NCBI RefSeq assembly: GCF_003018255.1 | Contig: NZ_CP027441.1 | Reading direction: 5' to 3' (one strand) | Origin: Escherichia coli | GTDB taxonomy: Bacteria > Pseudomonadota > Gammaproteobacteria > Enterobacterales > Enterobacteriaceae | DNA: 64,000 nucleotides | Shown: positions 47,101-56,100 of the stretch, piece by piece | Numbering within the stretch: position 1 is the stretch's first letter | Layout: each line of letters starts with the position of its first letter | Made by a program: the position numbers

Positions 47101-50100
47101 TGTTGTCGATAATCCCTGTGCCATTCTCTGAGCCAGAATATATTGCGAAACAGCTTTACCAACATTTCCAAGAACCTGAGTTGTCAGTTCGATACCCGCT
47201 GCAGCTTTTGTTCCTGTATGTGCGTCACTGTTTCCCAGAATAAAACTTGCTGATACAGCAGAAAGAATTCCGGAGACAACATCCAGCCCATCCCCCAGGG
47301 GGCCCAGGTCTGGTAAATTTTGTAATTTTCCACCAACAGAACTTAAGCGAGGTTTACTGGATAAAAATGAGCCAAGCTGGTTAAGCTGCTCAGAAAATGA
47401 ATCAACGGTACTGTTTATACTTGATACTGTATCTACAAGCTGATTAATAAGTTCAATACTACTTTTGGCAATATCATTCTGACTTATATCCTCTCCTTCC
47501 CGTTGTTTTCTCAGCAATTCATCAAGAGCCATGCCTGATAAAGCAATCCCCGTAAAATTCTGTAGTGCTGAGAGAACTGTTCCGGCTTTTCCCAGATTAT
47601 TACCTACATTTTCAGCAGTTCCGCCTATTTTACTCCCAACTTTCTGATACTTCTGCAGAAGTTTGTCAAGTTGTGGTGCGAATATTGCAACACCACGTTC
47701 AGTTAATCCTACAACTTTTTCTGCTGTACCAAAAAACTGGTTTGCAATCGCTGTATCATCTCGTTCAGTACGGTGTATTTCTATTCCAAGCTCATCAGCA
47801 GCTTTGACCAACTCATTAATACCCACGCCCTGAGCTTCATAATTATCAGGTATTAATAATATGAGTTTTTTTCCAGCGGAACGTACGCTTGATGATGCTG
47901 TATTAAATGCTGATTTTGTAGTCGATGTCGCATTGTTGAAAATGTTCTTTATTTTATTTACTGTCATATTAGTTTTCTTTCTCAATATTAAAATTAAAAT
48001 CTTGTCTGTTTTTTACTTCAGACATAAGTTCATGATGGTATTGCCTGAATATTTTTGATGCCAGCTTTTTATCTATCCCCCCTCCATGAAATTCAGCTAT
48101 TTTCCCTGTTTTACTGTACTCATCTAACCTTATTGCTCTGAATAACTCATAAGGATACTTTTTCCTCATGTGTTTATATAACTCCATGTTGTGCCCAAAT
48201 GGAGCTATCCAGTCAATAAACCACTTTCTTTCTCCCGACACCCAGTCTTTTGCATACAAAGATGTTACATCATTTATATATTTCACCTCACATTCCAAAT
48301 CTAAACTGGCCCAACTACAAAAAGCTACAGGAAGCTCATCCTTTATTAAGAGAGCAAATTGATTTGTCTGAATAGCAGGTATGACATTAATAGCAAAAAC
48401 AGATAGCGGCCATTTTTTATGCAACGAAGAACAGGCCCATAGCCATGCAACCTTCCCCATGACGTCAAAAGCATTAGATTTCATAATGTTTAAACAAATA
48501 AGAAAATTCAGTAAATGTAAAGAACTCTATATAAAAGAACAGGAATTATATCCTTTTAAGCAAGAAGCATCTAAAAACAAAAAGCTACCGCAAGGAGAAT
48601 CCCTCCCAACCAAAACAACATTAGCGATAATAATATATTACCTAAACATTCTTACACATATCACAGCTAAGTTATATTATAACACTCAGATGATTGATTT
48701 GTAAGATAACGTATGATTTTCATATGAATAGCCACGCGACAAATGCCTTATTAAAGAGATTGTAAACAGAATACAGCAAACAATTTCAGTTACCGAAATG
48801 ACGAGTTAATCTGTTTTGTTTACCCTGCAAACACAAAAGCCAAACTTACACAGCAAAGCAAACCTCCCTTCTTAATAAAAAAGCCCCGGATATTCCGGGG
48901 CTACAAAAATATTAACGAACAATCTGTCCAGTTATTTCAACCCTACGGTTGGGGCGCAGACACTCCTTCAGTCCATCCCCCACCATACCAGGGCATAATG
49001 CTACTGGTGCATCAGCCCCCCGGCCTGTTGCTTGTATCCTTTCGGCCTTAAATCCTCGGCTTATAAACCATTCCTTGACAGACTCTGCACGTTTTTCTGA
49101 CAGTATACGATTATACTCCTTACTTCCAAGAGGATCCGTAAACCCCTCAATTCTTACATCATCAACCTGACTGAACTTTGTGGCAATTCGCTCCAGTTCA
49201 TCATTAGCTTTATCCGTCAACCGCCACGAGTCAAAGTTAAATAATACGTCCCCCGACAGAGTTTCTTTATGAGAGACAGAATCCTCTTTTACTGTGTTCT
49301 CACCAGGAGTAGCGCTTGATATACCTGACATACAATTTTCTGGCTTCCAGTAGAAAGAGCGGGCATCCATGTTCCGGTCAAACAGTATCTTGTACTGGCA
49401 GGTATAATCCCCCTCCGGTCCGGTAAAGTTGAACAGGTAATCCCATTCCCTTACACCAAACATCCCTTCAGCAAAGTGTGGTCTCCCCGCCAGCTGATAA
49501 ATCTGGTCCTTATTCATACCCGCCTTTATCTGACGTAACTTTTCTGGTAGTGGCCACGAACCTTTCTGTGTTCCGTCATGATTAAACATCACCTTCTCCG
49601 GAGAAGGCCATACCACTTCTTCCGTCGTTCCTTCATCCGTGACATGACTCAGATTTCCACATCCTGCAAGCATCAGGGACAGCACACCCGTCATCATCAT
49701 TCGACTAAATAACATTACATTTCTCCTTGCTTTTCCCTGTTACCACTGCCAGCCCACACCGGCACCGACGGAGAAATTACCCCGGGTGTTCTGACCTGCA
49801 TTCAGTTTCATTATCACCTTACCGTTATCGGAGATACGGGACACACCTATTGCAATGGCGCTTTCACCACCATATCCACCGACACCCAGCCCCATCAGAC
49901 TTTTACCCGGCAGATAGGCCTGAGGTATCCCGCTCATGGCCGCAGCCGATGCACCAACACCACGGATATCCCGGTTAAGCTCTTCCACCCGGTAGCTCAG
50001 CTGGCTGAATTTATTCCCGAGAGTGTTTATCGCCTGTGTATTTCCGGCAACCTGACGGTTAGTTGCATGCAACTGACTGCCATTGACGGCATCCGTTGAG

Positions 50101-53100: not shown

Positions 53101-56100
53101 CGTTCATTTCCATTCTTTCCAATGGAAAAAACACTTTGGGGATTTGAGGCTGCAAACCCAGTATAAATCCTATCATTAATTTTTGCCTCAGTTACTTCTG
53201 TAGCCAACTTATCAACTGAGCCAGAACCAATTGCTACACTCTTATCAAAATTTACAGTGGCATCTTGTCCCAGAGCTACCGCAGAGGGCTTATTTACGAT
53301 CGCCGAGTCACCTATAGCTACAGAATTGACAGAATTTATACCCTTAACATGGCTGTACGCCCCTAAAGCAATACTGTTTTCAGCCTCTGCTTTGCTATTA
53401 TATCCTATCGCATTTGACTGATTTCCTCCAGCAACGGCTGTAGCACCCAGCGCGTTAGCCCCCATACCAGTTGCTTTACTGACCGCACCAATTGCAAGAG
53501 ATAAAGTTTCTGTTGCTTTACTTTGAGGGCCGACAACGATACTGGCGTCTCCTGTAGCCTCTGATGCGTCATAATTATCAGGGATCAATACTCCCCCATA
53601 CGAACGTCCTTTTAATGGCGTAAGGTCATCACCACCAATAACAATTGCTCCCCATCCACTTGCTTTAGTATCACCACCTATCGCGATTGACTGTTCTTTA
53701 GTCGCTTGTGCTTTGGCGCCGATTGCAATAGATTCTCCTGTCTTAAACCCTTCTGGAGTTTGTATCTCACCACCTGCTATCGCACTTGTACCAATAGCAA
53801 TAGAATTACGCCCACTAGCAATTGGAGACGTATGTTTGAAATAAATACCCTTATCTGGATCTTCTGGAACTTCACTAGTAGTCCCTATTTCGATGCTCAG
53901 CCAGTCATTACCTGCTGTATCCACCGGAGCTTCATCAACCTCAATATGAGACGTATTCTTTTCTGCAAAGGTCATAGCAACCGGAGCTATTGCTAGCGCA
54001 ATAGAAACACAAAGGAGTGTTTTTTTATATTTCATCGTCAGTCTCAACAATTTAAGGTATGCAATACTCTTGGAGTTTCCTTATCAACCCCAAGCATTCT
54101 TATAAAATACTCTAATAGCATGACACATATAAAAACAAGCAAGCAAGTAAACATACAATGTATCCTTTGATGCTCGCCCCTATACAGATAAAATCATTCC
54201 ATTTTATAAAACATAGAAGACATGCCTTGCAAAAAAAATAACCTTAATGTAGCTGTTACTTATAAAACTCCCTTAAGCGACATATGTTTTGATGTATTTT
54301 GTTTAATCGATTCAAGCTCACTGTTAAGTATCCATTATTTATATTATAGTGTTCGCAAACGAACTTTCTTGAACATCCATCAACCAAATAGGCTCTCAAA
54401 GAATCAAATACCTTCTTACTACATATCGGTGATATATCCATCAATAATAAGAAATGTTCTTCATCTAAACAGCCTGGCGTTAACATACTTTCGTCAGGTG
54501 CTCTGGTGTTTTTTTTATCCAAATTAATGATTCTCTCCATGCATGCCTCCTTTTTTACTATCATAAATACAAAAACAACTTTATCTCAACTCTCTCTTTA
54601 CATACGAAAAAAAGTCAAACAATCCATACACAACAGCAATAACAACAGAAACAACCAAGAAAAACAAAAAAAGAAAAACAAAAAACCAATACGCGAAGCA
54701 AAACCAAAAAAACACTTTTAAAACAGAAATAAAAAAAATTAGATAAAAATCAAATGACGACAATATTATCTAAACTTGCAATTAAAAATGAAACCTGTTC
54801 TTTGCAAGTGTGATAGTATTATTCTTCTGCAAGCTGATAAATGACATGCTTAGTTATCCCTCCCATTAATTTCTATTAAATATTTAATAAACTTGAACTT
54901 TGATTTCTACCCTTGATTTTTTCAAAAAACAATCAGTCGAACTGACTGGAGAATAACTCTAAAGACTCCTTCCATCTGGCGGTGATTAAACAGAGACAAG
55001 CATCATTGTTCTTCCCCTGAAATAACAGACTCGCAGCTAAGTAATAGCTCTGTCAGTGTGAGTCACATTACACAATGAAGTTGCACACTGAATTTGGCCA
55101 CCTGAACAGAGGTGATATGCTCACCTCAGAACAACACCGGTGCTCCAATGAAAAAAAGAAATTTCAGCGCAGTGTTTAAACGCGAATCCGCTCAACAGGT
55201 TGTTGACCAGAACTACACGGTGGCAGATGCCGCCAAAGCTATGGATGTTAGCCTTTCCACAATGACAAGATGGGTTAAACAACTGCATGATGAGCGTCAG
55301 GGCAAAACACCAAAAACCCCTCCGGGTAACACCAGAACAAATCGAAATACGTGAGCTGAGGAACAAGCTATAACGCATTGAAATGGAGAATGAGATATTA
55401 AAAAGGCTACCGAGCTCTTGATGTCAGACACCCTGAACAGTTCTCGATAATCGGGAAACTCAGAGCGCATTATCCTGTGGTAACATTCTGCCATGTGTTC
55501 GGGGTTCATCGCAGCAGCTACAGATACTGGAAAAACCGTCCTGAAAAAACAGACGGCAGACGGGCTGTATTACGCAGTCAGGTACTTGAGCTACATGGCA
55601 TCAGCCACGGTTCGGCCGGAGCAAGAAGCATTGCCCGGAGAGGCTACCAGATGGGATGCTGGCTTGCTGGCAGACTCATGAAAGCGCTGGAAATGGCATG
55701 AAAAACCCATGGTAAGCCCAGCGAGGTGATGTTCCACAGCGATAGTAATAATGCCGGTATCAGTTTTTATCATCACTCTGTTTGCTGTTTAACCAGATTG
55801 GTGTGATTACTGATGCAGTGAAGACCTTCCCGCATCCTGACTCACACAGAGCTCGCCCCTTTGTGTCCTGCCCCGGACCTGTCGGTTGCCGGAAGCGCCT
55901 TCATGCGAGGCGTCTCCTCACCGATGCGCGTGACTCAAGAAGGGCCTGACGGCTTGTCTCGTTACTGTCCTGTCTGGGTTATCTGTCTGGAGATTCAACT
56001 CTGTTTCCTCACAGGAGCTCTGTTATGGCAGGTAAAGTTACGGAAACTGCTGTTGTGGGTAGCGTGGATACACATAAAGATCTGCACGTTGCCGCTGTCG

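Follow-up and report, generated by a model that had tools for sequence, protein, structure and literature searches.

Evidence is presented here that sab, a plasmid-borne adhesin gene of Escherichia coli, is likely to be the middle gene of a three-gene adhesin operon (papB-like, sab, tpgA-like), in which the PapB-like protein would act as operon regulator and a lipoprotein resembling TpgA would clamp the adhesin. The locus was analysed in a window of 64,000 nucleotides (nt) from contig NZ_CP027441.1 (assembly GCF_003018255.1), and all positions refer to that whole stretch. As the initial annotation had held, the module at 48912–54540 was real: three genes on the minus strand, encoding a PapB-like protein of 94 amino acids (aa), the adhesin (1,431 aa) and the lipoprotein (267 aa), were followed by a strong terminator, and the arrangement recurred across plasmids. 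Its components were as follows.

54256–54540, minus strand: PapB/FocB-family regulator gene, 94 aa; AGGAGG at 54551–54546, 5 nt before the ATG at 54540.
54036–54255, minus strand: spacer between the stop codon of the PapB-like gene and the ATG of sab, 220 nt, AT-rich; a T8 run (54231–54238) lies beside a TTGCAA hexamer resembling a −35 element.
49740–54035, minus strand: sab, trimeric autotransporter adhesin gene, ATG at 54035, 4,296 nt, 1,431 aa; a predicted signal peptide is followed by YadA-like heads and stalks.
49743–49925, minus strand: membrane anchor of Sab, residues 1371–1431 (Pfam YadA_anchor, E = 2.3e-19), with K1378 and D1403 just before and inside it.
49716–49739, minus strand: junction between sab and the lipoprotein gene, 24 nt; AAGGAG at 49728–49723, 7 nt before the ATG.
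48912–49715, minus strand: gene for a TpgA-like, predicted outer-membrane lipoprotein, 267 aa; lipobox LAG/C19, BamE-like N-domain, disordered linker at about 125–145, OmpA_C domain.
48873–48902, minus strand: intrinsic terminator, AGCCCCGG-AATAT-CCGGGGCT plus a T-run, ending the module.

Sequence comparison identified the region as the sab locus of a pO113-type virulence plasmid of Shiga-toxin E. coli (STEC). A 6.1-kb stretch was 100% identical to plasmid NZ_CP027372.1 and 99.9% identical to pO113 (NC_007365.1), which comes from a STEC O113:H21 lacking the enterocyte effacement locus (LEE). In pO113-type records the adhesin was annotated as 'autotransporter adhesin Sab' and the genes beside it as 'OmpA family protein' on one side and 'adhesin biosynthesis transcription regulatory family protein' on the other, while ehxCABD came directly after the module. 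The adhesin is already known, having been described from O113:H21 98NK2 (Herold, Paton & Paton 2009) as the same gene in the same plasmid family and in the same position beside ehxCABD; the two proteins showed 99.8–100% identity. The gene encodes a trimeric autotransporter, as first annotated, but is not a new one.

The lipoprotein is probably a TpgA-type partner of Sab, clamping the membrane anchor of the adhesin to the cell wall by analogy with the AtaA-TpgA pair of Acinetobacter. Pfam placed a BamE domain at residues 54–115 (E = 2.8e-15) and an OmpA domain at 158–239 (E = 6e-17). TpgA was by far the top NCBIfam match (E = 1e-42), with residues 4–262 of 267 aligned to positions 5–267 of the 268 in the model. 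In phmmer searches the N-domain matched chain B of the AtaA-TpgA structure (9VNJ_B) with E = 2.4e-13, while the best BamE reached only 5e-3; identity to the 9VNJ_B fragment was 34% over residues 34–105, or 28% in the Foldseek alignment. The full-length AlphaFold model, with a predicted local distance difference test score (pLDDT) of 86, comprised an N-domain of two helices and three strands, then a disordered linker and the OmpA_C domain. The N-domain was modelled separately, because Foldseek searches with the full-length model were dominated by the OmpA_C domain, and its best match in the PDB was again 9VNJ_B (TM-score 0.83, root-mean-square deviation 2.4 Å), with BamE chains at 0.62–0.70. 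Its order of elements (helix-helix-strand-strand-strand) is that reported for TpgA-N. The C-domain had the fold of Salmonella and other enterobacterial OmpA C-domains (TM-score 0.88–0.90) and is predicted to bind peptidoglycan: the motif NxxLSxxRAxxV plus TD..G was intact, as NRILSEKRAESV at 202–213 and FTDPLG at 192–197, and D194 and R209 were invariant in 66 homologues.

The residues that join AtaA and TpgA were also retained by both E. coli partners. Through a crystal structure (9VNJ), pull-downs and mutants, K64, D65, L80 and F81 of TpgA have been shown to contact D3601 and K3576 of AtaA, of which D3601 lies in the strand 2–3 loop of the adhesin; K64 and F81 proved important by mutation (2025, PMC12523085). 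HMMER alignment to 9VNJ chain B paired K69, D70, M85 and F86 of the lipoprotein with TpgA K64, D65, L80 and F81, and alignment to chain A paired Sab K1378 with AtaA K3576 and Sab D1403 with AtaA D3601. Hence the suggestion of a dedicated anchoring or export helper in the initial annotation agrees in sequence, fold and interface residues with a published system (PMC12523085). Its label of 'OmpA-family lipoprotein' was correct for the peptidoglycan-binding domain, but architecture, fold and interface residues were those of TpgA and not of a generic OmpA protein. Identification as BamE was rejected, given that the protein has two domains and that sequence and fold matched BamE less well than TpgA-N; for the same reasons, the 'bamE' label in some RefSeq records is misleading.

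On its domain content, Sab is a type Vc (trimeric) autotransporter with a Hia-like C-terminal anchor, and is predicted to form a trimer. The N-terminus (MKYKKTLLCVSIALAIAPVAMTFA) resembled a signal peptide, the passenger contained several YadA_head repeats and four YadA_stalk matches (Pfam), and the protein was matched in addition by NCBIfam models of the EmaA/Ata/YadA type. The anchor aligned with the Hia anchor structures 3EMO and 2GR7 at E = 6e-20, and with the AtaA anchor (9VNJ_A) at E = 1e-6. Each YadA-like anchor contributes four strands to a 12-strand barrel. The citing papers examined describe Sab simply as an 'autotransporter', and one review (PMC3796261) files it under the classical type Va autotransporters; this filing conflicts with the sequence, because Sab carries YadA head, stalk and anchor domains. 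Herold 2009, according to a citing paper, reported that Sab is located at the surface and confers adhesion. In the citing papers examined, the downstream lipoprotein and the upstream PapB-like gene were mentioned nowhere.

Co-transcription of sab and the lipoprotein gene is strongly implied, since the genes are separated by 19–24 nt, no terminator intervenes and the hairpin beyond the lipoprotein gene is kept in four other contexts. This favours the co-transcription initially suggested, with the correction that the gap, given there as 25 bp, measured 24 nt from stop codon to ATG. The stem-loop of the terminator (48902–48882) had nine pairs, seven of them G-C, followed by TTTTTTATT; no terminator was found between sab and the lipoprotein gene, nor any other before 48902. 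Beyond the window, the hairpin was recovered at loci L003, L012, L020 and L032, which span ehx-linked, IncFII and chromosomal settings, although not in every context.

The adhesin-lipoprotein pair was present in 86 of 5,426 complete E. coli genomes, with 24 chromosomal places, and in all E. coli contexts found the two genes stood together with the gap of 19–24 nt. These contexts were the following.

Many STEC plasmids: beside ehxCABD.
IncFII plasmids without ehx: L020 and L021.
Other plasmids, adjoining genes for AraC and serine protease autotransporters of Enterobacteriaceae (SPATE), or chaperone-usher genes: L015–L017.
Small contigs: L018 and L019.
Chromosomal island adjoining ireA: L032 and L033.

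The chromosomal copies (L032, 8614–13734; L033, 8611–13731) formed a unit of adhesin gene, lipoprotein gene and terminator near ireA and a cluster for type I secretion and a GA-like-domain (giant adhesin-like) protein. The three genes of the module do not adjoin by chance: their arrangement recurs in many diverged plasmids with different flanks. Approximately 500 pO157-type plasmids shared only the DNA upstream of ehxC (48700–48882), up to the foot of the terminator at 48882. The module therefore ends exactly at that position, and with respect to pO157 it is a discrete unit that was inserted or deleted. The module is also a mosaic (52000–54900 compared with 48900–52000). Sliding comparison of ehx-linked plasmids showed an identity of 30–80% across the regulator gene, the DNA upstream of it and the opening 1.5–2 kb of sab, and of 95–100% across the final 2.5 kb of sab together with the lipoprotein gene (comparison loci L003, L006, L011, L012 and L015). 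The breakpoints varied among lineages.

Upstream of sab, the initial annotation had recognised a PapB-family regulator with an AGGAGG ribosome-binding site, and this was confirmed. The protein matched Pfam PapB (PF03333) at E = 2.4e-36 over 86 of 91 model positions and the FocB structure 3M8J at E = 3.6e-16 over 77 aligned residues; SRKxVCE was kept, GCSRKFVCEHY aligning with GHSRKDVCEKY of FocB. The Arg and Cys of this segment reportedly have roles in the PapB family. The reading frame was open from 54564 (54256–54564, 102 aa) and a longer start is possible; most RefSeq records give 94 aa. The gene was intact, and its dN/dS of 0.10–0.18 against alleles in other plasmids indicated purifying selection. 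Among close homologue clusters in the protein database (62–99% identity), it lay directly upstream of the adhesin gene and in the same orientation in 15 of 15. A PapB-family protein filled the same slot on plasmids without ehx, at 51% (L015) and 30% (L020) identity, and between module versions identity ranged over 30–88%. The gap to the adhesin gene was 193–220 nt in three variants, the window included, and 8–15 nt in five; in these five, the two genes must share a transcript because so short a gap leaves no room for a promoter. In the 220-nt spacer of the window, no terminator-like site was found on the minus strand.

The nearest relatives of the PapB-like protein elsewhere belonged to pilus operons, namely CofR (type IVb pilus, 48% identity), PefB and a protein from a chaperone-usher operon of S. 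diarizonae (47%). The protein shares the family domain with PapB, FocB, SfaB, CofR and PefB, and its gene stands first in an adhesin operon, as papB precedes papA. What follows it, however, is a gene for a type Vc autotransporter in place of chaperone-usher or type IVb pilus genes; a GATC/Lrp region is absent, and no papI is evident. No gene for a fimbrial subunit, chaperone or usher was present within the module, the next gene being the autotransporter, and a literature search found no publication linking PapB with trimeric autotransporters. The pairing of regulator and autotransporter thus appears as unusual as had been proposed, although the species-wide scan says little on its rarity, because the PapB-like alignment returned a single locus, the S. 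diarizonae chaperone-usher operon. In one plasmid lineage a second PapB-like remnant lay about 1.2 kb upstream of the intact gene (L013, 6724–6822; L012, 6659–6795), a hint that the regulator cassette was once duplicated or replaced.

Three elements were delimited in the DNA preceding the PapB-like gene.

54560–54589, minus strand: sigma-70 promoter predicted for the PapB-like gene, TTGAGA, 18 nt, TATGAT; 10 of 12 consensus positions, the best in the region.
54600–54790, minus strand: unusual T-rich tract of about 200 nt upstream of the predicted promoter, with 56% T, only 7% C (coding strand) and nine runs of T5–T8.
54749–54775, minus strand: conserved box of 27 nt, GTTTAGATAATATTGTCGTCATTTGAT, about 210–235 nt before the start codon of the PapB-like gene.

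Both hexamers and their spacing were conserved in diverged variants, the T-rich composition was common to eight of nine variants, and the box aligned in all variants but L020, including those with PapB-like proteins only 50–88% identical. Power spectra of nine variants showed no consistent 9–11 bp period of T runs, as sought for PapB sites or curved DNA, above shuffled controls. An Rfam search gave no noteworthy RNA element, the RNA of the spacer folded only mildly better than shuffles (z = -2.15), and no RfaH ops/JUMPStart element was found in the region near the ehx or sab promoters.

If the operon functions as envisaged, the trimeric Sab barrel would receive three lipoprotein N-domains on its periplasmic side, with K69 contacting Sab D1403 and D70 contacting Sab K1378, and with M85/F86 providing a hydrophobic tip. 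The OmpA_C domain would bind peptidoglycan through D194 and R209 and tie the adhesin fibre to the cell wall, which by analogy would aid surface display of Sab and its retention under shear. Translation of the lipoprotein would proceed from the Sab mRNA, ending at the 48.9-kb terminator. From its place as first gene, the PapB-like protein is most likely a small DNA-binding autoregulator that controls transcription from the promoter lying behind the T-rich tract, perhaps by countering silencing of this AT-rich foreign DNA; in this plasmid lineage a second promoter, nearer to sab, may be supplied by the 220-nt spacer.

Several observations weigh against this reading. With regard to the regulator, the PapB-like gene was absent from the chromosomal ireA-linked copies (no PapB-family gene occurred in the 666 nt upstream of L032 and L033), from L018, and from L017, where about 800 bp are deleted. 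For the same pairs of plasmids, dS was 0.4–2 in the PapB-like gene and 0–0.017 in the lipoprotein gene, and alleles so diverged make repeated replacement or hitch-hiking of the gene possible. In a search for an operator shared by the upstream region and the spacer before sab, only low-complexity A/T repeats and no operator motif were found. The gene might then be a leftover from a pilus operon or a hitch-hiker, or might regulate other targets such as fimbriae or ehx, with no role for sab. Its great divergence between otherwise near-identical modules and the insertion sequence (IS) debris upstream are in keeping with this, F-type plasmids commonly carry PapB-family genes as orphans, and cross-talk of the PapB family to type 1 fimbriae is established. 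We nevertheless consider an absence of any role for sab unlikely: wherever the gene was present it lay directly upstream in the same orientation, often 8–15 nt from the adhesin start and so on a shared transcript; no pilus genes stood beside it; its reading frame was intact and under purifying selection; and a family member of only 30% identity occupied the same slot on another plasmid type. Being under selection yet missing from some copies, the PapB-like gene is best described as a frequent, functional but dispensable operon head.

The other points against the operon reading concern the lipoprotein. It scored 146.1 bits against a cut-off of 350 for the NCBIfam TpgA equivalog (NF047726), and therefore counts as a homologue of Acinetobacter TpgA but not as its ortholog. 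In one variant from E. coli (L018), Ile-Ala replaced the hydrophobic-aromatic pair. The closest relatives outside E. coli were PlpD/Plp4 of Pasteurellaceae and a Pelistega protein (45–48% identity), the products of core genes that stand by themselves, the surrounding 10 kb being free of autotransporter genes, so that the family is not obligatorily dedicated to adhesins. Acinetobacter TpgA aids display but is not essential for membrane insertion, and Sab was reported to be functional when cloned in E. coli JM109 (Herold 2009, according to a passage in a citing paper).

These points could be accommodated if the lipoprotein were a general envelope tether, similar to PlpD, Pal or YiaD, that is carried along with the adhesin gene and is not specific to Sab; OmpA_C domains are, moreover, generic peptidoglycan binders. 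Such a tether is, however, a very improbable explanation of the genomic pattern, in which every E. coli copy found lay 19–24 nt after a trimeric autotransporter gene, in at least five genomic contexts. The N-domain was nearer in sequence and fold to AtaA-bound TpgA-N than to BamE, with the contact residues kept on both partners. Outside E. coli, a Castellaniella homologue also followed a trimeric autotransporter gene, there broken by an IS, and in a published survey 91% of TpgA-cluster genes were downstream of a trimeric autotransporter adhesin gene (PMC12523085). Escherichia members are included in that survey.

A TpgA-type clamp accords with what is established for AtaA-TpgA of Acinetobacter sp. 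Tol 5 and Ata-TpgA of A. baumannii, where the helper gene likewise lies directly after the adhesin gene in one operon. The two domains (BamE/SmpA-OmlA-like and OmpA_C), the fold and topology of the N-domain and the interface residues are shared. The systems differ in that AtaA has 3,630 aa and Sab 1,431, that the Sab anchor is nearer to Hia than to AtaA, and that the E. coli helper has a clear lipobox while TpgA is described as periplasmic. The Sab locus, unlike AtaA-TpgA, is plasmid-borne with a PapB-family gene first.

Another enterobacterial precedent is SadB-SadA of Salmonella, in which an inner-membrane trimeric lipoprotein promotes display of a trimeric autotransporter. The likeness extends to a dedicated lipoprotein co-encoded with the adhesin, but SadB belongs to another protein family, resides in the inner membrane and is encoded upstream, whereas the Sab helper is encoded downstream and is predicted to associate with the outer membrane and peptidoglycan; SadB is a transient assembly aid and the complex of Sab with its helper is expected to be stable. 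A SadB-type helper was rejected on the basis of domains (BamE-like plus OmpA_C) and gene position, SadB having been taken by description, with no sequence compared.

PlpD/Plp4 share with the E. coli lipoprotein the lipobox context ACGNLS, the domain pair and an NKDQ...EGL[YF] motif, at 45–48% identity over the full length, and differ in having a C-terminal extension and in their isolation from autotransporter genes, the PlpD settings being recJ-plpD or dsbA-plpD. The PlpD/Plp4 and Pelistega homologues (L028, 10001–10861; L029, 10001–10852; L031, 10001–10846) retained the TpgA interface residues, and Hia-type anchors retained the partner Asp. Going by these residues, the stand-alone PlpD of Pasteurellaceae may be a trans-acting clamp of TpgA type for Hia-like adhesins.

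Phase-variable expression of Sab is highly unlikely, be it through an epigenetic switch of the Pap kind or through slipped-strand alteration of poly-T runs. The Pap switch involves two GATC sites within Lrp-binding sites and a divergent papI. In the present locus no GATC occurred in 54036–55200, the nearest being at 53858 inside sab, and no PapI-like gene was evident among upstream reading frames and gene calls, which comprised only IS fragments, no homology search having been aimed at PapI. A Dam/Lrp switch of the Pap type was accordingly rejected, and the phase switch that the initial annotation had associated with the regulator was not present. As to slippage, seven plasmids of at least 99.9% identity differed by three indels in 6.1 kb, every one of them in a T7 or T8 run of the non-coding DNA that precedes either the PapB-like gene or sab (54230, 54607 and 54731): two fell in the T-rich tract (54731–54738, 54607–54613) and one was a T8/T9 difference in the spacer at 54230. 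Coding T runs of equal length (54020–54026, 54509–54516) were invariant among the seven. Hia, a related adhesin, is known to undergo phase variation that depends on a poly-T run. The polymorphic runs here lay upstream of the −35 hexamers and not between −35 and −10, and the events numbered only three, a pattern that homopolymer errors of long-read assembly would equally give; the indels are thus a weak lead, reflecting either slippage that tunes expression or assembly error. It is a rather doubtful extension of the operon reading that the PapB-family protein was recruited from pilus operons as a dedicated regulator acting on the T-rich tract, with T-run slippage tuning or switching expression and cross-talk coordinating Sab with fimbriae.

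The DNA upstream of the module (55100–58100) consisted of IS debris, with fragments of IS3-family transposases and an N-terminal fragment of the IS110 family. An integrase-core reading frame of 273 aa, intact in appearance, occurred at 57262–58083, and related plasmids carried lldP-lutABC further on.

The kind of helper, which is structurally characterised and whose published concept includes Escherichia, and the PapB regulator family are both already known. What is apparently undescribed is Sab as a trimeric autotransporter served by a TpgA-type protein, and a PapB-family gene heading the operon in most plasmid versions. These results refine annotation and leave basic concepts unchanged. Sab serves as a marker of virulence for LEE-negative STEC, yet is treated in the papers examined as a lone 'autotransporter'. 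If the TpgA-type clamp is real, native display may be under-represented in cloning or vaccine studies that use only sab, and with the E. coli pair the TpgA anchoring model would be easy to test genetically in a host other than Acinetobacter. A PapB-family first gene would, if its role holds, extend pilus-type regulators to type V adhesins, and suggests a route by which plasmid adhesins may be coordinated with chromosomal fimbriae.

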